This document shows, one piece after another, positions 2,355 to 61,662 of a stretch of 64,000 nucleotides of DNA; position 1 is the first letter of the stretch; each line of letters begins with the position of its first letter. A model generated the notes under the pieces. The model had not been told where the DNA came from and ran no database searches. It saw only the letters and a list, made by a program, of their open reading frames with translations. Source of the stretch: Patescibacteria group bacterium (lineage in GTDB: Bacteria; Patescibacteriota; UBA1384; XYA2-FULL-43-10; 1-14-0-10-43-13); NCBI GenBank assembly GCA_041649155.1, contig JBAZNP010000001.1:673183-737182 (forward strand), read 5' to 3'. Both the position numbers and the translations under genes were made by a program.

Positions 2355-2423
2355 CGTCATTCCAGACTTGATCTGGAATCTATATAAATAGTAACTGGAT
2401 CCCGTATCAAGTACGGGATGACA
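2355..2423. repeat. palindromic mini-element E1 (GTCATTCC...GGGATGACA family)
   Basis: cgtcattccagacttgatctggaatc...ggatcccgtatcaagtacgggatgaca forms two stem-loops and shares termini with the other copies. Ends about 20 nt before the trpS ATG. Confidence 0.7.
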
Positions 2424-3893: not shown

Positions 3894-3974
3894 CGTCATT
3901 CCGGACTGTGGCTTGAGATCCGGAATCTATACAATAGTCGTGCTTCTGGATCCCAGATCAAGTCTGGGATGACA
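3894..3974. repeat. palindromic mini-element E2
   Basis: cgtcattccggactgtggcttgagatccggaatc...ggatcccagatcaagtctgggatgacag. Lies 14 nt upstream of the next ATG. Confidence 0.7.
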
Positions 3975-5235: not shown

Positions 5236-8124
5236 ATGTTTAAAAAAATTGACCCTAAATTAAATTTACCGCTTGAGGAAGAAAAAGTTTTAAAGTTTTG
5301 GCGCGAAAATGACATTTTTAAAGAAACACTCAGGAAAGAAAGTCCAAAAGGTAATTTTGTTTTCTATGAAGGTCCTCCCACTGCAAATGGTCAGCCTGGC
5401 ATTCATCATGTAGAGGCACGTTCATTTAAAGACCTGTTTTGTCGTTACAAAACAATGCAGGGTTATCATGTTGAGAGAAAAGCAGGTTGGGATACTCATG
5501 GTCTTCCAGTGGAACTTCAGGTTGAAAAAGAGCTAGGTATTTCAGGCAAGTCGCAAATCGAAGATATCGTTTCCGGAGACAAAATAAAGTCAATTGAAAA
5601 ATTTAACGACTTATGCAAGCAATCAGTCTGGAAATACAAGGAAGAATGGGAAAAAATGACCGAGCGAATGGCATATTGGGTCGACATGGATGATCCATAT
5701 GTTACATATGAGCCAAAATACATTGAAAGCGTTTGGAATATCATCTCTGAGATTGATAAAAAAGGACTTTTATATAAAGGACATAAAGTAGTGCCTTACT
5801 GCCCTCGTTGCGGCACTGCTCTTTCATCTCATGAAGTAGCGCAGGGATATAAAAAAGTGACCGAAGAATCAGTTTACGTTAAAGTAAAATCCATGAAAGA
5901 TGAGGTTTGTTTCTTGGTCTGGACAACAACGCCTTGGACCTTGGCGGGAAATGCTGCGTTAGCTTTTAATTCAAACATTAAGTACGTTGTGGCCAAGAAA
6001 GACGGACAAAAACTTATTTTGGCAAAAAACAGGCTTTCAGATGTGTTAAAAGGTAATGATTATGAAGTTATTGAAGAATTAACAGGCAATGAATTAGTTG
6101 AGAAATATTCTACAAAAGAACTTGATTATGAACCAATTTATCCTGATGGTGAAAAATATTCCGAAGCAGGGGATAGAGCTTATAAATTAATTATAGCTGA
6201 CTATGTTTCTGATGCAGATGGCACTGGTATAGTCCATATCGCGCCAGCTTTTGGCGAAGATGACTATACATTCGGTTTTCAAAAAAATGGCATAAAAGTC
6301 TTGAAAACGGTTGACGAAAAAGGAATGGAGTTAGCCGGTGCCGGTGCTGGAAAGTTCGTAAAAAAGGCTGATTCTGATATAAAAATTGATCTGGAAGAGC
6401 GAAATATTTTATTTAAAAAAGAAGATGTCACTCACGATTATCCGTTTTGTTGGAGATGTGAGTCACCATTGCTATATTTTGCCAAAGACTCATGGTACAT
6501 TGCCATGAGCAAGGTGCGGGAAGATTTATTGAAAAACAATGAAGGAATCAATTGGAACCCCGCATATTTAAAACAGGGACGTTTTGGTAATTGGCTCAAA
6601 GAAATCAAAGATTGGGCCATTTCACGTGATCGTTACTGGGGAACTCCGCTTCCGATTTGGGAATGCGAGAAATGCAATAAATACAAAGTCGTTTCTACAT
6701 TAAAAGAAGTTGGCGATATTGATCCACATAAACCTTTTATCGATGAAGTGGAATTTGATTGCGAATGTGGCGGTAAAATGAAAAGAACATCGGAGGTAAT
6801 GGATGTCTGGCTCGATTCTGGAACTATGCCATTTTCGCAATATCACTGGCCATTTGAAAACAAAGAAACATTTGAAAAACAATTTCCAGCTGAGTTTATT
6901 TGTGAAGCTGTTGATCAAACACGAGGCTGGTTCTATACAATGCTTGCGGTTTCAACATTAATTAAAAACGAAACTCCTTATAAAAATGTTATTTCGGTCG
7001 GTCATGTTTTAGATGAAAAAGGCAAGAAAATGTCTAAGTCATTGGGAAACATTGTTAAACCTGAAGAAGCATTTCAAAAATTTGGTGCCGATGTTGTTCG
7101 CTATTATTTTTATGCGGTTAATCAGCCGGGTGAACCAAAACTATTTTCTGAAAAAGAGGTGGTTTCGTTGTCAAGAAATCTGTTTTTAACTCTATGGAAT
7201 GTTTTTTCTTTCTTTATGACCTATGCTTCAATCGATGATTTTAAACCAACAGGAAAAGTAAAAATTGATAATATTTTAGACAAGTGGATAATGGCCAAAT
7301 ATCAAAAACTTGTAAATGACGTCACAAAGTCGTTGGATCAATACGATCCATATCATGCAAGCAACTCTTTGATTGAATTTACAACGGAGCTTTCAACTTG
7401 GTATGTTCGTCGTTCTCGCAGAAGATTTTGGAAAAGCGAAAATGACTCTGACAAATTATCCGCATATGAAACTCTCTATCAAGTTTTGAATGGGATGACC
7501 AAACTTCTGTCTCCATTTGCACCAATGTTTGCAGATTTGTTGCACAGTCATTTAAAATCTAATTCAGATCCAATTTCTGTTCATTTGACAGAATATCCGG
7601 AAGTTTCAGAGCATGACAAAAAGGTTATTTTAGATATGGAACGTGCAAGAAAAATAGTCGAAGCCGGATTATCTGCTAGAGCTGAAGCAAAAATTAAAGT
7701 TCGTCAGCCTTTGCAATCCATTGGCTACTACGGAGAAAAATTAAGTCCTGATCTAGAAGAGATACTAGCAGATGAAATAAATGTTAAGGAAGTAAAAAAT
7801 CTTACAGAAAAATCAGAAAATGTTGTTAAACTTGATTTAAATATTACACCAGAATTAGAGAGAGAGGGTCAGGCCAGAGAGTTGGTGCGAAATATTCAGT
7901 CTTTGCGAAAAAAATCAGGTTTTGAAGTTGAGGACAGAATTGAACTATATTTTCAAACAGAATCTACTGTGCTTATTGAAATGATGAAAAAAATGCAAGA
8001 AATAATTGCAAAAGAGATTTTGGCGGAGAAAATTGAGAATATAAAAGCAGAAACTGAGGGCGAAGAAGAATTCTCTATTAGCGGCGAAAAAATCTGGATT
8101 GGTGTTTCAAGGGTAAAAAAGTAA
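5236..8124 (+). CDS. ileS: isoleucyl-tRNA synthetase
   Basis: 962 aa. PPTANGQPGIHHVEARSFKD (HIGH-region), KMSKSLGN, and the editing-domain region WTTTPWTL. Confidence 0.95.
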   Translation: MFKKIDPKLNLPLEEEKVLKFWRENDIFKETLRKESPKGNFVFYEGPPTANGQPGIHHVEARSFKDLFCRYKTMQGYHVERKAGWDTHGLPVELQVEKELGISGKSQIEDIVSGDKIKSIEKFNDLCKQSVWKYKEEWEKMTERMAYWVDMDDPYVTYEPKYIESVWNIISEIDKKGLLYKGHKVVPYCPRCGTALSSHEVAQGYKKVTEESVYVKVKSMKDEVCFLVWTTTPWTLAGNAALAFNSNIKYVVAKKDGQKLILAKNRLSDVLKGNDYEVIEELTGNELVEKYSTKELDYEPIYPDGEKYSEAGDRAYKLIIADYVSDADGTGIVHIAPAFGEDDYTFGFQKNGIKVLKTVDEKGMELAGAGAGKFVKKADSDIKIDLEERNILFKKEDVTHDYPFCWRCESPLLYFAKDSWYIAMSKVREDLLKNNEGINWNPAYLKQGRFGNWLKEIKDWAISRDRYWGTPLPIWECEKCNKYKVVSTLKEVGDIDPHKPFIDEVEFDCECGGKMKRTSEVMDVWLDSGTMPFSQYHWPFENKETFEKQFPAEFICEAVDQTRGWFYTMLAVSTLIKNETPYKNVISVGHVLDEKGKKMSKSLGNIVKPEEAFQKFGADVVRYYFYAVNQPGEPKLFSEKEVVSLSRNLFLTLWNVFSFFMTYASIDDFKPTGKVKIDNILDKWIMAKYQKLVNDVTKSLDQYDPYHASNSLIEFTTELSTWYVRRSRRRFWKSENDSDKLSAYETLYQVLNGMTKLLSPFAPMFADLLHSHLKSNSDPISVHLTEYPEVSEHDKKVILDMERARKIVEAGLSARAEAKIKVRQPLQSIGYYGEKLSPDLEEILADEINVKEVKNLTEKSENVVKLDLNITPELEREGQARELVRNIQSLRKKSGFEVEDRIELYFQTESTVLIEMMKKMQEIIAKEILAEKIENIKAETEGEEEFSISGEKIWIGVSRVKK

Positions 8125-29423: not shown

Positions 29424-29830
29424 AAAGTAGAAGGTGGATTGTAGAAAGTGGAGAGCGAGCATTCATTCAAACTGTAATTCATGATGTCGAAAAATCCCCG
29501 AGTCGATCCAATAGAAAAAGAGACGGCCAGTGGCGCGGGCCGTCTCTTTGTTGTCTTGGTGCCGAACCAAGAGTAGATGGGGCAGTGGAGTGCCCAACCA
29601 TCAAGATCATCTACTTGCGGTTTGTAAGTGCTATCATCATAGGCAACCTCCGGAAGGGTCCCCATAAAATAGCGGGTAGTTTTATTGTATACAAATATTT
29701 TATATGCGCAAGTGGACAACTTGAAAAAAGAGCATAAAAGTAGTATTATATGATTTGTTAAATTAATTATGTGGGAGTTGGGAGACGTTTGCACCACAAA
29801 CCGCTAAGTTAATAGCGGGCTAGGAAAAAA

Positions 29831-30622
29831 ATGACAGCGAAAAAAGTTGTAGAGATGGCCAACGAAGAAGTCATCGACGAGAAGAAAATTCTCAAAGAAG
29901 CAGAGGAAAGAGAAAAAGAGAGAAAAGCTGAGGAAGAAGTAGCAAAAGAAGAAGAAAAAAAGGCTGAAAAGGAAGAGAAGAAAGAAGAGAAGAAAAAAGT
30001 AGAGCAGAAGAAAAGAAAGCCTTTGCATGGTAAAAAATACAGGGAATTGGCCAAGCAGATTGAGAAAGACACGGAATATCCAATTGCAGAAGCGATTGAA
30101 TTAGCACTTAAGACTTCTCCTGTAAAATTTGACGCTACAATCGAAGCTCATTTTAAGATCAATCCTAAAGAAAAAAATATTCGAGGCATGATCACTCTTG
30201 CCGGCGGTCTTGTTAAAGAGAAGAAAGTGAAGGAAGTTACCGAAGGTAATGTTGACGAAGTGATCGCAGAGGTTAAGGCTGGTAAAGTTGATTTTGATGT
30301 GATGATCGCCGAACTAAAGGCCATGCCTAAACTAGCTCAGCTTGCAAAAGTACTAGGTCCTAAGGGCCTTATGCCTTCGCCAAAGGCTGGAACTGCTGTT
30401 GAAGATGTAGCTAAAGCAGTAGAAGAATTAAAGAGCGGCAAAGTTGAATACAGAGCAGATAAATTCAATATCGTTCATTTGGCACTAGGTAAAATATCTT
30501 TCGGTTCCGAAAGAGTTAAACAGAATTATGATGCAATTTTAAATGCTTTGCCATTTAAGAAGATTGAAACTATATTCTTGACTTCTACAATGGGTCCAAG
30601 CGTTAAGGTGGCCAGAAAGTAG
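29831..30622 (+). CDS. rplA: 50S ribosomal protein L1 with Lys/Glu-rich N-terminal extension
   Basis: ...[44 protein letters not shown]...[24 protein letters not shown] matches uL1. About 70 aa of extra charged N-terminal sequence. Confidence 0.9.
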
Positions 30623-30670
30623 AGGGTAGAAAGTGGAAGGGGAACATAGAAAGCTGAATTGTGCTAAAGG

Positions 30671-30717
30671 AAAAATCGCCTTGAATTCGATAATGTCGGA
30701 TCAAGGCGATTTTTTTG
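30671..30717 (+). terminator. Rho-independent terminator after rplA
   Basis: aaaaatcgccttgaattcgataatgtcggatcaaggcgattttttt. Confidence 0.7.
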
Positions 30718-30746
30718 TTGACTTATGCTTGTGTTTTTGTTATATT
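30718..30746 (+). promoter_or_regulatory. sigma70-like promoter for rplJ-rplL (TTGACT-N17-TATATT), followed by about 150 nt leader
   Basis: ttgact, 17 nt, tatatt. The leader before rplJ contains hairpins (ctgtcgctgacag, gcacagtagttgcag), consistent with an L10-type autoregulatory leader. Confidence 0.5.
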
Positions 30747-30894
30747 AATTTTGTTCCAAAGACCACAAGTTCCGTCTGTCGCTGACAGCCGAGATTAAAT
30801 ATCTTGTGCAGGGATGAATTTAAATCATAATAAATTGATTTATTATTTATTTCTGCACAGTAGTTGCAGATTTTTTTATAAAATGGAGTGCATT

Positions 30895-31416
30895 ATGGCA
30901 AAGACAAAAGAAGCAAAATCAAAACTTTTAGAAAACCTTGACAGCAAAATCGAAAGAATGAAATCTGCTGTGATTGTTGACTACAAAGGTTTGAAAGTAA
31001 AAGACACTGAGGCATTGAGAAATGCCCTGAGAGAAAAAGGTGTTGAGTTTAACGTTTCAAAGAATTCATTAACAAAGATCGCTTTGAAAAAAGGTGGTAT
31101 TGAATTTGATGAAAGCGTTTTTACAAAACCGGTTGCAATCGCTTTCGCAATGGAAGATGAAGTTGCACCTGCTAAAGAAATCACTCTTTTCGCGAAAAAG
31201 AATGAAGCGATTGAGATTTTGGGTGGAATTCTGGAGCGAAAGTTCATTGATGATGCCATGGTAAAGCGGCTAGCAGCTCTTCCTTCAAAAGAACAATTGC
31301 ATGCCAAAGTTGTTGGCACAATTGCAGCTCCATTATCTGGCTTGGTCAATGTTTTTGCTGGAAATATGCGCGGCTTGGTCAATGTTTTAAATGCTCACAA
31401 GGAAAAAGTTAGTTAA
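30895..31416 (+). CDS. rplJ: 50S ribosomal protein L10
   Basis: MAKTKEAKSKLLENLDSKIERMKSAVIVDYKGLKVKDTEALRNALREKGVEFNVSKNSL is the uL10 N-terminal consensus. RBS ggag before the ATG at 30895. Confidence 0.9.
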   Translation: MAKTKEAKSKLLENLDSKIERMKSAVIVDYKGLKVKDTEALRNALREKGVEFNVSKNSLTKIALKKGGIEFDESVFTKPVAIAFAMEDEVAPAKEITLFAKKNEAIEILGGILERKFIDDAMVKRLAALPSKEQLHAKVVGTIAAPLSGLVNVFAGNMRGLVNVLNAHKEKVS

Positions 31417-31496
31417 ATAATTAATATTAATAAATAATTTATAAGAATTTGACCCCAGTTAGATAGCTATCGCATCTAACGGGGTAAAGGAGAAAA

Positions 31497-31952
31497 ATGG
31501 CAGAAGAAGAAAAAGTAGAAACAACTGAGGCAGTTGCCGAAGTAAAAGAAGAAACAAAAGCAGAAGTTCCTGCAAAATTTGAGAAGATCGTTGCTGAGAT
31601 TGATAAAATGTCAGTTTTGGATCTTTCAGAATTTGTTAAGGTTCTTGAAGATCACTATGGCGTATCGGCTGCAGCTCCTATGGCTATGGTTGGTGCTGTT
31701 GCTCCAGCTGCTGGCGAAGCAGAAGCTGCTGAAGAAAAAACATCATTTGATGTTATCCTAGCAGGTGCTGGCGCACAAAAGATTGCTGTTATTAAGGCTG
31801 TTAGAGAAATCAAACCGGAATTAGGTTTGAAAGAAGCTAAAGACTTAGTTGATGGTGCTCCAAAAGATCTTCTAAAAGGTGTTAAGAAAGAAGACGCTGA
31901 AGCTGCAAAAGCAAAGCTAGAAGCTGCTGGTGCTACTGTTGAAATGAAATAG
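31497..31952 (+). CDS. rplL: 50S ribosomal protein L7/L12
   Basis: Ala-rich hinge followed by the C-terminal domain [19 protein letters not shown]...[14 protein letters not shown]...[10 protein letters not shown]. Confidence 0.95.
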
Positions 31953-32001
31953 GCTGATTAGATAACAGCTAAACAGAATAAAGATAACAGATAGATATGT
32001 A

Positions 32002-32032
32002 CAAAAAAGCCCCGATTAATCGGGGCTTTTTT
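32002..32032 (+). terminator. Rho-independent terminator after rplL
   Basis: aaaaaagccccgattaatcggggctttttt. Confidence 0.75.
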
Positions 32033-32244
32033 GTATTTTGTGGTATAATTTTAATGTTAATATTTATACCGGAAGGGGGGTGGGCTGATTGGCAAAGCGG
32101 TGGCGCGAAAGACTCAGAAAGAGGCTGCGCGATTTGCTCGGATTGCGTCAGCCAATGTGGGCATGATTTTTTCTCTTTGGGCCGACACTGTCTTTTAGTG
32201 CCGGCTCTTTTCATTCTTATGGTTTTCTAGTATAATATTTTGTT

Positions 32245-33480
32245 ATGGCATTTGAATTAATCAAAAAATTAGATAACGGAGTTCGGGTTGGAAAACTAAC
32301 AACGCCTCATGGAGAAATTGAGACGCCTTTTTTTATGCCGGTGGGCACAGTCGGTAGTGTTAAGGGTGTATCGCCAAATGAATTAAACGAATTGGGTGCT
32401 CAAATAGTTCTGTCTAATACTTATCATCTGTATTTGCGTCCAGGAGAAAAACTAATTAAAAAACTTGGTGGACTGCATCAGTTTATGAATTGGAATAGGC
32501 CAATACTTACCGACTCTGGCGGATACCAAGTCTTTTCTTTGGGAAAAGACAATTCTAAATTTCTAATTTCTAATGACAAATCAAATTACAAAACCCAAAT
32601 AACAAATGTCCAAACATCTTTGGTTAAAATTACTGAGGATGGGGTTGAATTTAAGTCGCATTTAGACGGAAGTAAGCATTTTTTTACTCCTGAGAAAGTA
32701 ATCCAAATTCAACTTGATTTAGGGGTGGATATCTTGATGCCGCTCGATGTTTGTCCCAGCGGGAAGGCAACTCGGGAGGAGATTGAAGAAGCTTGCAAGT
32801 TAACAATATCTTGGGCAAAGCGTTCCAGAAAATATTTTCTGGAACAAGTAGAAAGTAGAAAGCTGAAAGATAACAGGCCACTTCTTCACGGAATAGTCCA
32901 AGGGGGATTGTATGAAGATTTACGCAGATATTGCGCTAAAGAGCTTATTAACCTTGATTTTGATGGATACTCAGTCGGAGGGTTGGCAGTTGATTTTGAA
33001 ACTCGTGATATGTGGAAGACTGTAAAATTGATGGGAGAAATTCTTCCCGAAAACAAGCAGAGATATTTAATGGGGGTTGGAACTCCTGACGACATTATTA
33101 AAGCAACGAAATTAGGCATGGACATGTTTGATTGTGTTTTGCCGACAAGATTAGCTCGTCACGGATCGGTTTATGTTAAAAATTGTCATTCCCACAACAA
33201 CCTTTGTCATTCCCGCGAAGGCGGGAATCCAGAGCCTGGATCCCAGATCGAGTCTGGGATGACAGACCATTATAAACTTATCAATCTTTTAAATTCCAAA
33301 TACAAAGAGGACGGGGGAGTGATCGATGAAGAATGCGCCTGTCCGGCTTGTAAAGGGGGATTTAGCCGTGCTTACATTTCGCACCTTCTAAGATCCAAAG
33401 AAATATTGGGACTGCGTTTAGCAACACTGCATAATCTACATCAGTATTTAGAACTGATGAGGGAATTAAAAAGTGAATAA
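32245..33480 (+). CDS. tgt: queuine tRNA-ribosyltransferase carrying an in-frame palindromic-element insertion
   Basis: TPHGEIETPFFMPVGTVGSVKG, LTDSGGYQVFSL, and zinc site CACPACKGG...SHL. About 30 extra residues (KNCHSHNNLCHSREGGNPEPGSQIESGMTDH) sit where other TGTs are contiguous; these are encoded by element E6. TATAAT lies 11 nt upstream of the ATG. Confidence 0.9.
   Translation: MAFELIKKLDNGVRVGKLTTPHGEIETPFFMPVGTVGSVKGVSPNELNELGAQIVLSNTYHLYLRPGEKLIKKLGGLHQFMNWNRPILTDSGGYQVFSLGKDNSKFLISNDKSNYKTQITNVQTSLVKITEDGVEFKSHLDGSKHFFTPEKVIQIQLDLGVDILMPLDVCPSGKATREEIEEACKLTISWAKRSRKYFLEQVESRKLKDNRPLLHGIVQGGLYEDLRRYCAKELINLDFDGYSVGGLAVDFETRDMWKTVKLMGEILPENKQRYLMGVGTPDDIIKATKLGMDMFDCVLPTRLARHGSVYVKNCHSHNNLCHSREGGNPEPGSQIESGMTDHYKLINLLNSKYKEDGGVIDEECACPACKGGFSRAYISHLLRSKEILGLRLATLHNLHQYLELMRELKSE
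33185..33265. repeat. palindromic mini-element E6 inserted in-frame in tgt
   Basis: gtcattcccacaacaacctttgtcattcccgcgaaggcgggaatccagagcctggatcccagatcgagtctgggatgacag: same termini and the same second hairpin as E2. Confidence 0.7.
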
Positions 33481-33652: not shown

Positions 33653-33856
33653 ATGAGTGATGATTACCAGGATGACCAAACAACCAAGGAAGAGGAAGCT
33701 GTAGAAGAAACAGATGATTCAGACGAGGAAACTGAAGGAGAAGAGACAGAAGCTGCTGAAGCACCTGTAGAAGAGAAAGAAGAAGATGAAACCGAAGAAG
33801 CTGAAACTCCAGAAGAAGAAGACGAAGACGAAGACGAAGATAAAGAAGAAGAGTAA
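33653..33856 (+). CDS. small highly acidic protein (67 aa, D/E-rich)
   Basis: Strong RBS aggaaagaggagg; sequence composed mostly of E/D/T. A terminator follows. Confidence 0.4.
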   Translation: MSDDYQDDQTTKEEEAVEETDDSDEETEGEETEAAEAPVEEKEEDETEEAETPEEEDEDEDEDKEEE

Positions 33857-38745: not shown

Positions 38746-39096
38746 ATGAATAACGATGATATGAACAAAGCGGACAATATTGAGGAAACTAATGATATAA
38801 TATTGCTGTATCAGAAAAAAATCATGGAAGAACTAGGGCTTGATAAGCTTTCCGAAAAAGAAAAAGAGGAAGCTGAAGCAAAAATTGCCAACCTTGTTAA
38901 TAACAGGGTGGTGAATATTATTTTGGCGTATTTACCGGAAGAGAAAGCCGAAGAATTTAAAGTTTTGATTGAGCAAGAAAAACTGGATGAAATAATTAAA
39001 TTTTTAAAAACAACAGTGCCTGATATTGAAGTTAAAATTGCAAATGATCTAATGCTGTTAAGAAAAGAATTAATAAGCAAATTGGCGAAAAAATAA
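38746..39096 (+). CDS. hypothetical protein (116 aa, K/E-rich)
   Basis: ORF with RBS ggagggg. Stop overlaps the next start (ATAATG). Confidence 0.4.
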   Translation: MNNDDMNKADNIEETNDIILLYQKKIMEELGLDKLSEKEKEEAEAKIANLVNNRVVNIILAYLPEEKAEEFKVLIEQEKLDEIIKFLKTTVPDIEVKIANDLMLLRKELISKLAKK

Positions 39097-40886
39097 TGTT
39101 ACAAAATACGGAAACAAAATCTAAGTCAGGATTACTGATGGACGCATCTGCTCATTTTAGTGAATCAGGAACTTCTGATAACTTTTTGGAGCTTCAAAAG
39201 GCTCTTAGCGCTGCTTCTGAGGCGGATAAAAATAAACTACGTGCAAGATATGCAGGTAAAGAAGGTTCTGCGGTCGAAGCGTCTCAAGAAAAAGGTATTG
39301 AGACCAGTGAGCAGGAAAAATTTGATGAATTGATGGAGGCTGTGAATAAGTTTGAGGAATTGGCCAAAGAGACTAAGAACATTGAAAAAGAACTTCAGGA
39401 AGCCGAAAGGGCTCATGATGAACATTATAGTAGCTATGCTGGGAAGATTACTTTGGCTGATCAAAATAGAGAGAGGGGATTGGTTACACTTAGAGCTGAA
39501 GTCGGACAAAAGCTCGAAGAAATGATTGTATTAAAGGGTGATATTCTAGACAAATTATCAGATATTAAATCTCATGAACTGAGGGCGAAAACATATGAGC
39601 GATTTGAAAGAAAGAAACCTGATGAAGTAGGAATGTCCAGTGAAGTAAAGTTGGAAACAAAATCCGACAAACATACAGATGATTTAAAGCATCGAACACT
39701 TAATCATAAGGCTAGGGAAATAGTTAAGTCTAATCTTGAAAAAATAGCAAAAAAGAAAACAGAAGCGGAAAAAATTGTCGTAGAAGTGGCCCCTGAAAAT
39801 GTTGAGCCTTCTGTACAGGAAGAAACCGCTGTCGCAAATGATTTGAAAGAAGAAGAAATTAGAAATAATTCAGAAGATCATCTTGCGCCTGGGATTCAAA
39901 TTGGCCGAGAAGAGGAGAGTGAAACACCTAAACCAGAAGAAGTTCAGACTAAGTCTCCAAAGGATATTATTGAACAAAAAGCGGTTATTGATATTCCTGA
40001 ACAAAAACCCCAGCCAGTTGCAGAAAATAAATCTGAAATTAAAGACAAACCATCCGAACCTCCGGTTGAAATCATGGAAATTGGACCAGATGGCGATCCT
40101 GTTAGCGTTACAGATAATGAAGGAGACTTTAGGGAAGACGAGATAACTTTTGTTGATGGTTCGGCTCAGCAGAACATTCCACAATCAAAAGTGGGGGAAA
40201 GTGAAAAGCAAAAAGTAGATTCTTCAGAATTTATCGATAAAATCAGAGAAAAACAATCCGAAATTGCAGAAAGAATGGGACTGGAACTTAAGAAACCAGT
40301 TGCCGAACCGATAAGGAAAATTGACGACTTTTTGCCGCCAACATCCAGAATTGAACAGGCAGCGGAAACAATAGAGCAAGATTTAAATAAACCAATCGCA
40401 GCTGCAAAAGCAGAACCAATTATTGATGAGAAGACTGTGAGTTCTATTCCTGTTATCCCCGAGAAGTCGGGGATCCAAGATAGTGATAGATTAGTAGATT
40501 CCCGCCTACGCGGGAATGACAATGTGGAGGGCGGGAATGACAATGCGAAAATGGCTGAATCGGACGATCAAATATTAACTCAAAATATTCAAACAGCAGA
40601 GCCCGTTGTCCCTGAGCAGAAAATCGAACCGGTTCAGCCGGTTACGGAAGAAGTGGGTAATAATGATGCAGGCAATATGATAGATATCAAGCCGGCAATC
40701 GAGGCAAAAGAAATTCAATTAGAGCAGCCTTTGCCAGAGCAAAAGAGGGGATTCTTCGGGAGAATTTTTGGCGGGAATAACGCTGATAGGCATGGTGCTG
40801 AAGTGATAGCTGGAAAGGGTGATGAATTAACCGCTGACCACATACATCAAATATTGGGTGCTAATGAAGAGAAAGAAGCGGCATAG
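39096..40886 (+). CDS. hypothetical charged/low-complexity protein (596 aa) with an in-frame palindromic-element insertion
   Basis: Coiled-coil-like E/K-rich sequence. Element E7 encodes ...IPEKSGIQDSDRLVDSRLRGNDNVEGGNDNAKM. Confidence 0.4.
   Translation: MLQNTETKSKSGLLMDASAHFSESGTSDNFLELQKALSAASEADKNKLRARYAGKEGSAVEASQEKGIETSEQEKFDELMEAVNKFEELAKETKNIEKELQEAERAHDEHYSSYAGKITLADQNRERGLVTLRAEVGQKLEEMIVLKGDILDKLSDIKSHELRAKTYERFERKKPDEVGMSSEVKLETKSDKHTDDLKHRTLNHKAREIVKSNLEKIAKKKTEAEKIVVEVAPENVEPSVQEETAVANDLKEEEIRNNSEDHLAPGIQIGREEESETPKPEEVQTKSPKDIIEQKAVIDIPEQKPQPVAENKSEIKDKPSEPPVEIMEIGPDGDPVSVTDNEGDFREDEITFVDGSAQQNIPQSKVGESEKQKVDSSEFIDKIREKQSEIAERMGLELKKPVAEPIRKIDDFLPPTSRIEQAAETIEQDLNKPIAAAKAEPIIDEKTVSSIPVIPEKSGIQDSDRLVDSRLRGNDNVEGGNDNAKMAESDDQILTQNIQTAEPVVPEQKIEPVQPVTEEVGNNDAGNMIDIKPAIEAKEIQLEQPLPEQKRGFFGRIFGGNNADRHGAEVIAGKGDELTADHIHQILGANEEKEAA
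40455..40545. repeat. palindromic mini-element E7, in-frame inside the CDS
   Basis: atccccgagaagtcggggatc ... attcccgcctacgcgggaatgacaatgtggagggcgggaatgacaatg has the same arms as E6 (cccgcgaaggcgggaat). Confidence 0.6.
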
Positions 40887-49368: not shown

Positions 49369-49551
49369 AATAACTCCTTCGGATAAATTTCTAAATCCTA
49401 ATTTCTAATGTCAAATAAAATAACAAATGCTCAAATGTTTAAAATAATTTATAAATTTGATTTTTAGATTTTTATTTGAAATTTGTAATTTAGGATTTGT
49501 CATTATGCTGATATTCTGGAAAATAAACTAATTTTTCTTTCTCGCGCTCCC

Positions 49552-61562: not shown

Positions 61563-61662
61563 CGTCATTCCGACTCCTTGGCTTTGTCCAAGGATGGAGG
61601 AATCTTTTAATTAATTAAAACTACTATAAAAAGATCCCTTCATTTCAGTCGGGATGACAAAG
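61563..61662. repeat. palindromic mini-element E10 (two halves)
   Basis: cgtcattccgactccttggctttgtccaaggatggaggaatc ... gatcccttcatttcagtcgggatgacaaag. Lies 90 nt upstream of the giant gene start on the - strand. Confidence 0.6.

Follow-up and report, generated by a model that had tools for sequence, protein, structure and literature searches.

A 64,000-nucleotide stretch of the genome of a Patescibacteria group bacterium (NCBI GenBank assembly GCA_041649155.1, contig JBAZNP010000001.1, positions 673,183 to 737,182 of the forward strand; below, the window, to which all copy counts refer) contains an intact tgt gene, coding for a queuine/preQ1 tRNA-ribosyltransferase (TGT) of 411 amino acid residues, and within this gene a palindromic element of 81 nt that is read in frame. 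We consider it probable (roughly 0.7) that these 81 nt represent one copy of a palindromic REP-hairpin dimer that is dispersed and either selfish or near-neutral, and that this copy resides in a tolerant loop of the enzyme. A preliminary description of this DNA, made from its letters, had already placed a palindromic in-frame element in tgt; the element is real, and both the quoted peptides and the palindrome are found in the sequence, but its borders, given as 33185-33265, have to be moved by one base. The features on which the argument rests are the following.

32245-33480, plus strand: tgt, the host gene of the insert, an intact open reading frame (ORF) matching Pfam PF01702
33184-33264, plus strand: the whole in-frame palindromic element, a half-site plus a tail-to-tail heterodimer of two TGTC-tagged hairpins, coding for residues C314-T340
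33184-33204, plus strand: 21-nt unit with a solo 5' half-site (TGTCATTCCCA plus spacer), a direct repeat at a spacing of 21
33205-33232, plus strand: NTS (Neisseria Transformation Sequence)/CGTC-1 REP unit, with a TGTC tag, 8-bp stem ATTCCCGC, loop GAAG, stem GCGGGAAT and tail CCAG
33236-33264, minus strand: inverted second hairpin, CGTC-2-like, with a TGTC tag, stem ATCCCAGA, loop CTCGA, TCTGGGAT and tail CCAG

The element begins with TGTCATTCCC and ends with GGGATGACA, and its 81 nt correspond to 27 codons without a stop in the frame of tgt; of the six possible frames, four are open. Between FDCVLPTRLARHGSVYVKN and DHYKLINLL...CACPAC it is built as TGTCATTCCCACAACAACCTT-TGTCATTCCCGCGAAGGCGGGAATCCAG-AGC-CTGGATCCCAGATCGAGTCTGGGATGACA (33184-33264). 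Both stems are complementary at 8 of 8 positions (33209-33216 with 33221-33228, and 33240-33247 with 33253-33260), the tags are left unpaired (TGTC at 33205-33208 and GACA at 33261-33264) and the outer arms, TGTCAT and ATGACA, are complementary to each other. Since the right unit is CGTC-2-like and lies on the strand opposite to that of the left unit, the insert is a tail-to-tail heterodimer. Folded as RNA, the element reaches -34.8 kcal/mol (z = -3.6), a stability attained by none of 200 shuffled sequences, and its G+C content is 54%, against 37% for the window. Neither an Rfam scan nor a tRNA scan of the window gave a match, so that the element belongs to no known RNA family and does not derive from a tRNA.

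Of the 28 positions of the NTS consensus, CGTCATTCCCGCGMAVGCGGGAATCYRG, 27 are shared by the left unit (33205-33232). The NTS, 28 nt long, contains dRS3, and its consensus was defined together with the degenerate SRM motif (PMC11893778, Nat Commun 2025); dRS3 is a 20-bp palindrome of Neisseria, ATTCCC-N8-GGGAAT (dRS3/NIME, PMC1797815). This core is present at 33209-33228 (ATTCCCGCGAAGGCGGGAAT), and the SRM motif is matched at 33205-33232, 40494-40521 (minus strand) and 2395-2423 (minus strand), where 0.11 matches would be expected. According to the catalogue of CGTC REPs (PMC3733652), the tag of these repeats is often TGTC, CGTC-1 corresponds to dRS3 in Neisseria and to RPE-6, one of the Rickettsia palindromic elements (RPE), in R. 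conorii, and RPE-4 is a CGTC-4 REP. By its sequence, then, the left unit is an NTS/dRS3/CGTC-1 REP unit. The preliminary description had called the insert RPE-like, and rightly so, given the equation of CGTC-1 with RPE-6 in that catalogue: the family is palindromic and dispersed, the copy is in frame, and relatives have a short loop.

The hairpin has a wide distribution. The exact form GTCATTCCCGC-N4-GCGGGAATC is present in at least 120 genome stretches, which span Proteobacteria, Chloroflexota, Bacteroidota, Planctomycetota, Nitrospirota and others; among the matches listed, the groups of the candidate phyla radiation (CPR) are Paceibacteria, Parcubacteria, Saccharibacteria, Uhrbacteria and Magasanikiibacteriota. 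We also noticed a single NTS unit within apparent coding sequence of a Saccharibacteria contig (L032, around position 1661, reverse), another inside the annotated ileS of Sphingopyxis indica (H5, NZ_CP076395.1, 32493-32527), and 11 places in the Microcystis jumbo phage MaAM05 (H16) that match the NTS part of the element.

Five further members of the family were identified in the window.

40451-40542 (approximate), minus strand: second NTS-type copy, which has the same 21-nt half-site unit, in frame inside ORF 39096-40886 (plus strand)
2355-2423, plus strand: intergenic copy CGTCATTCC...GGGATGACA, whose right unit matches the SRM motif
3894-3974, plus strand: intergenic copy, with a right arm identical to that of the tgt element of the relative L001
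5148-5216, plus strand: intergenic copy upstream of ileS
61563-61659, plus strand: intergenic copy whose termini are the same and whose AT-rich spacer is longer

Thus, there are six copies, four intergenic and two in frame inside genes, and five can be defined by their termini, where 0.075 would be expected. All four intergenic copies have the termini CGTCATTCC...GGGATGACA, the arrangement in two hairpins and CGTC as their tag. The 28-mer of the left unit recurs at 40494-40521 on the minus strand (0.00 expected), as part of the copy carried by ORF 39096-40886, a conserved ORF of 596 residues on the plus strand in which the copy reads ...VIPEKSGIQ...LVDSRLRGNDNVEGGNDN...; the L001 orthologue of this ORF (39% identity, E = 7e-98) has a gap where the copy sits.

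In both intragenic copies of the window the half-site is offset by exactly 21 nt, or 7 codons, a spacing that the reading frame would require. Among 171 NTS sites in other phyla, 12 have a solo 5' half-site upstream, at a distance of 19-23 nt, and none has one downstream; the half-site is sometimes repeated twice or three times, and it occurs also in N. gonorrhoeae. The unit was located at 33184-33204 and 40522-40542 (minus strand) of the window, in eight further loci (L038, L044, L047, L052, L053, L067, L089 and L098) and at 151-196 of L204. The tgt copy of L001 lacks the 21-nt unit, that is, the solo 5' half of the NTS and its spacer.

The product of the host gene matches the TGT family with E = 4e-135 (Pfam PF01702), and an identical protein, encoded on a contig of 798,787 bp, is deposited as MFA4996221.1 (Patescibacteria group bacterium). 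Asp90, Asp296, Cys364, Cys366 and Cys369 are invariant in the TGT alignment and His396 is nearly so; the TGT fold, the catalytic aspartate pair and the Cys3His zinc site are all retained, as the preliminary description had stated for the catalytic and zinc motifs. The ratio of non-synonymous to synonymous substitution rates (dN/dS) is 0.06 and 0.10 in comparison with the two nearest relatives, L001 and L002, respectively; we therefore take tgt, on these sequence comparisons, to be functional and under strong purifying selection. Purifying selection is what the data show, and to call the enzyme essential, as had been done, is an overstatement; in E. coli tgt is dispensable. The AlphaFold2 model of the protein (predicted local distance difference test, pLDDT, 81.7; predicted template modelling score, pTM, 0.82) superposes on the Z. 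mobilis TGT with a TM score of about 0.81-0.89 (Foldseek, 1PUD/1Q2R). Directly 3' of tgt lies a 67-residue ORF (33653-33856) that is extremely acidic, being rich in Asp and Glu, and a small ORF is likewise found 3' of tgt in L001 (66 residues) and L002 (58 residues).

In most of 80 metagenomic TGT loci the distance from the DCV motif to CxCxxC is exactly 44 residues, whereas it is 74 in the window and 47-48 in the shortest Patescibacteria forms. The alignment with the E. coli TGT (PDB 10fb) falls into three blocks and sets 33 residues of the window protein (313-345) opposite 3. We compared the 120 closest protein clusters, all from Patescibacteria or Berkelbacteria where named, and in the shortest forms among them, ...VKN-R-SKYKLINLL or ...IKN-D-HAYALINLL, the loop consists of 2-4 residues. 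These short forms lead us to read VKN|DHYKLINLL as the empty site, which on this alignment is filled exactly by the element. The preliminary description had put the addition at about 30 residues, which agrees with 27 from the element plus the approximately three of the lineage baseline.

The insert lies between helix alpha-B (PTRLARHG) and the zinc-binding CxCxxC motif, and between the catalytic Asp296 and the zinc site (Cys364/Cys366/Cys369/His396). In the AlphaFold2 model residues 315-338 have a pLDDT below 50 and are flanked by strands at 308-312 and 343-347, so that the 27 inserted residues are predicted to be disordered and to sit at the tip of a beta-hairpin. In TGT, Arg286 has been placed in helix alpha-B, and the support of the tRNA has been assigned to the beta-E/beta-F loop of the second subunit (PMC5395182).

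Between the window and L001 the tgt genes are 75.3% identical in DNA, with 52.7% identity at third positions and a synonymous divergence (dS) of about 2.0, whereas their elements, placed at the same codon, are identical at 58 of 60 positions. None of the 20 third positions of the element has changed, against 47% gene-wide (P = 3e-6); the stems are perfectly conserved, and the two differences are both in hairpin loops and both non-synonymous (P to S and E to K). L002 is closer to the window (81.5% identity, dS 1.16), yet at this codon boundary it has a CGTC-tagged element of another kind. Other orthologues have at this site 2-4 residues, nothing palindromic, or again a different CGTC-tagged element. 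The same insert in distant orthologues had been named in the preliminary description as a sign against an insertion. This is partly the case, L001 carrying the element at a dS of about 2, while the closer L002 differs and many orthologues are without it.

A frozen element in L001 together with a different one in the closer L002 does not, on the sequences compared, fit vertical inheritance of a neutral insert. Stem constraint, homogenisation with other copies, re-insertion, or exchange via the shared termini are possible causes. The minus-strand right unit of the window element is almost the same as the right arms of the intergenic copy at 3894-3974 and of the L001 tgt copy; as these last two arms are identical to each other, the whole family is slow-evolving or shared. 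Because L002 has another element and many orthologues have none, the pattern speaks for a site that has been occupied repeatedly, and against an ancestral native loop.

Recurrent occupation extends over two loops of the enzyme. At the loop considered so far, approximately 10 of the 120 homologues have peptides that open as the translation of (N)GTCAT and close as that of ATGAC, and at the FSLG...SLVKIT loop (window residues 101-126) peptides of the GTCAT...ATGAC type are found in approximately 15 of the 120. At least eight kinds of such peptides are distributed over the two loops, as CHS...GMT, RHPEGAQ...AQND, VILSHCEST...RND, VISSEAERRREI...SRND and VIPAKAGIQ...DPRVKSEDD. In DNA, CGTC-tagged palindromes were confirmed at the first loop in L002 and L128 and at the FSLG/SLVKIT loop in L124. 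The last of these, at 575-628 of L124, is an NTS-type dimer (GTCATTCCCGCGCAGGCGGGAATC...GGGATGAC) in frame in a Patescibacteria tgt of 67% identity, where it is read as HVIPAQAGISKIPDQVRDDK; the NTS-type family is seen there in another frame and at another TGT loop.

The window protein has an insert of its own at this second loop, KDNSKFLISNDKSNYKTQITNVQTSL (residues 101-126, window 32545-32622), where the E. coli TGT has 2 residues; its pLDDT is below 50. The DNA of this insert is related to an AT-rich palindromic intergenic element at approximately 49385-49510, with 27 of 30 and 22 of 24 matches, in both orientations, and the insert seems, from these matches, to come from a different repeat family, unrelated to the first.

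If the 81 nt are a selfish or near-neutral repeat, the element would be transcribed and translated through, yielding a tolerated surface loop with no required function in the protein. Selection would leave only in-frame, stop-free copies in permissive loops, and such survival would explain why two TGT loops collect elements in Patescibacteria. The nucleotide sequence would be held by stem pairing, by homogenisation, or by re-insertion and exchange at the TGTCAT/ATGACA termini, and not by selection on the protein. Spread would probably proceed via an enzyme specific for single-stranded hairpins, for which an Ssn-type GIY-YIG nuclease of single-stranded DNA (ssDNA) is the candidate.

The last suggestion comes from Neisseria, where SsnA, a small nuclease of the GIY-YIG type, cuts the NTS as ssDNA; copies of the motif typically flank the gene of this enzyme (PMC11893778). 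In Patescibacteria we found one instance that is suggestive of such a link. At 3-165 of the contig L128, the 3' end of an Ssn-like GIY-YIG gene, of which 40 codons match (45% identity, E = 2e-7 against a small database), is directly followed by a hairpin ending in GATGACA, approximately 85-90% identical, by eye, to the right arm of the different CGTC-type element that the contig's own tgt carries at the first loop (6100-6215).

Several points weigh against the interpretation as a selfish or near-neutral mobile repeat. Direct repeats at the borders, as a target-site duplication would leave, are present at none of the six copies, and neither a transposase nor an Ssn-like or other hairpin nuclease (regular expressions; tblastn to E<=50) was found in the window. 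Ssn-like GIY-YIG proteins (cd10448) gave no tblastn match in these 64 kb, which are part of a contig of at least 799 kb, nor in L001 or L002, and no autonomous insertion sequence (IS) with the same termini was found in the window or in the relatives fetched. The Ssn link in Patescibacteria is one truncated match of 40 residues, and the fragment falls below the Pfam thresholds. Furthermore, the 58 of 60 positions shared with the L001 copy could mean functional constraint, not neutrality, and we infer, from the frame, that the insert is translated. Likewise, we infer mobility from presence and absence and from copy number.

The constraint just mentioned could come from a role of the nucleic acid itself, the element being kept as an Ssn or recombinase site that steers recombination or transformation, or as a hairpin of the mRNA by which its translation or stability is adjusted, with the protein loop as a by-product. 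Stems kept perfectly between the window and L001 at a dS of about 2, with differences confined to the loops, would be in line with such a role, as would the fold z-score of -3.6 and the part played by NTS sites in Neisseria, where they modulate how transforming DNA is integrated (PMC11893778). We nevertheless consider it unlikely, since the CGTC element of the closer L002 is unrelated and the site is empty in many relatives, so that no specific sequence is required there; the arms of the intergenic copies are equally conserved, which fits a family-wide homogenisation, and no Ssn gene was seen in the window.

A role of the inserted peptide can be weighed with the same comparisons. The insert could have been domesticated as a module of TGT, contacting the tRNA or a partner or offering a metal site, since each TGTCAT tag encodes Cys-His in the tgt frame (C314-H315 and C321-H322) and the interrupted hairpin adjoins the zinc subdomain; moreover, it is found in two lineages at a dS of about 2. 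This is very improbable, in our estimation, because the two changes in L001 are both non-synonymous while the synonymous sites are frozen, the opposite of selection at the level of the protein. L001 is also without the first Cys-His unit, other relatives have unrelated peptides or 2-4 residues, and the pLDDT is below 50 throughout the insert.

The notion of an ancestral Patescibacteria TGT loop that happens to resemble the repeat, or of an assembly artefact, to which the 47-48 residues of the shortest Patescibacteria forms (canonically 44) and the break of one short-read contig, L203, at the element boundary, a sign that assemblers struggle here, could be seen to lend something, is effectively refuted by the presence of the same element in four independent assemblies (the NCBI metagenome-assembled genome (MAG) with its 799-kb contig, JGI, ENA, and L001 from another MAG), by the five further copies in the window, four of them intergenic, and by the 27 of 28 positions that the left unit shares with a motif known across phyla.

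That contig (ENA contig k141_2165819) is 97.4% identical to window positions 29648-33263 and departs from the window right after ...GGGATGAC (33263) into an unrelated ORF on the opposite strand (3597-4030 of L203), its tgt being called as a truncated protein of 346 residues (P0122). The junction is either an assembly chimera at a repeat or a real rearrangement at the element.

An intron, an intein or another excised intervening sequence was likewise rejected: no intron or intein features are present, and all intragenic copies are stop-free and in frame. This was checked in the DNA of the window tgt, ORF 39096, L001, L002, L124 and L128, and holds likewise for the repeat-like peptides of annotated homologues; read-through translation would predict this, and excision would not.

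We return to a selfish or near-neutral hairpin dimer as the preferred interpretation, and the hot-spot pattern and the frozen sequence as the parts of it worth following up. A bolder and rather doubtful extension is that the two disordered TGT loops, and probably loops of many other proteins, act as landing pads, on which an Ssn-type nuclease or recombinase drives repeated insertion and cassette swapping of tagged hairpin dimers via the TGTCAT/ATGACA termini, the elements remaining nearly invariant while synonymous sites saturate. If true, this would mean that minimal genomes have an active, phylum-wide turnover of in-frame loops, and it would give the Ssn/NTS system a concrete biological role beyond Neisseria. 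Independently of this extension, a pan-bacterial hairpin (NTS/dRS3/CGTC-1) is now found in coding frame in the ultra-small genomes of CPR bacteria; what is added is its repeated landing in the same two TGT loops and an evolution far slower than that of the surrounding synonymous sites. With many independent insertions in one well-studied enzyme of which crystal structures exist, TGT offers a tractable natural system for the spread of REP-type hairpins, the involvement of Ssn nucleases and the tolerance of loops to insertions. For annotators, CHSREGGNPE, VIPAKAGIQ and LDSRLRGND in Patescibacteria proteins are to be taken as derived from repeats.

Palindromic repeats that lie in frame in Rickettsia genes are textbook knowledge, and Ogata et al., in 2000 (Science 290:347) and 2002 (Genome Res 12:808), reportedly described such elements in conserved genes, at surface positions compatible with the fold. 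The window element has in common with RPEs a palindromic repeat in frame in a conserved ORF that is left undisrupted. The classic RPE-1, however, measures approximately 100-150 bp and codes for a single conserved peptide, always in one orientation, whereas the window family has 60-81 bp and is read in either orientation and in different frames (tgt and ORF 39096); the host of RPEs is Rickettsia, and here it is a free-living or episymbiotic CPR bacterium. The equivalence with RPE-6 is the one given in PMC3733652. Our search of the literature on palindromic, miniature inverted-repeat transposable element (MITE) or in-frame repeats in CPR/Patescibacteria gave nothing relevant.

Bacterial MITEs (PMC10969869) are likewise short, non-coding, multi-copy sequences with terminal inverted repeats that can give rise to in-frame fusions; they differ from the window family, in which neither a target-site duplication nor a related autonomous IS was detected. 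The anatomy of hairpin and tag points, as far as sequence can tell, to a single-strand mechanism of the REP type and not to a cut-and-paste DDE mechanism. With the NTS the element shares the consensus match (27 of 28), the dRS3 core, the SRM match and, in N. gonorrhoeae, the combination of half-site and NTS, but the Neisseria repeats are intergenic, organized in arrays and tied to natural transformation, whereas the window copy is a dimer inside a gene.

The closest likeness is that with the CGTC REPs (Di Nocera, De Gregorio & Rocco 2013, BMC Genomics 14:522; PMC3733652), which are defined by a stem of 8-9 bp and a loop of 4-5 nt. Common to both are a CGTC or TGTC tag that stays unpaired, a stem of 8 bp with AT as its first bases, a loop of 4 nt (5 nt in the partner unit), a CCA tail, heterodimers that can be folded as one large stem-loop, and a mainly intergenic location with some in-frame copies, including RNA-related enzymes. 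CGTC REPs are there said to be mostly dimers and to have no known dedicated transposase, and REPs or dimers are also found in frame inside genes, where they add 20-30 residues, tRNA synthetases and truB included. They are described from five phyla, chiefly from Alphaproteobacteria, with neither Patescibacteria nor tgt among the hosts, and the parts of the account consulted are without the recurrent occupation of two loops by many subfamilies and the 21-nt half-site unit. The event itself is of a known kind, in-frame CGTC/GTAG REPs having been catalogued in 2013, and the new host is the tgt gene of Patescibacteria.

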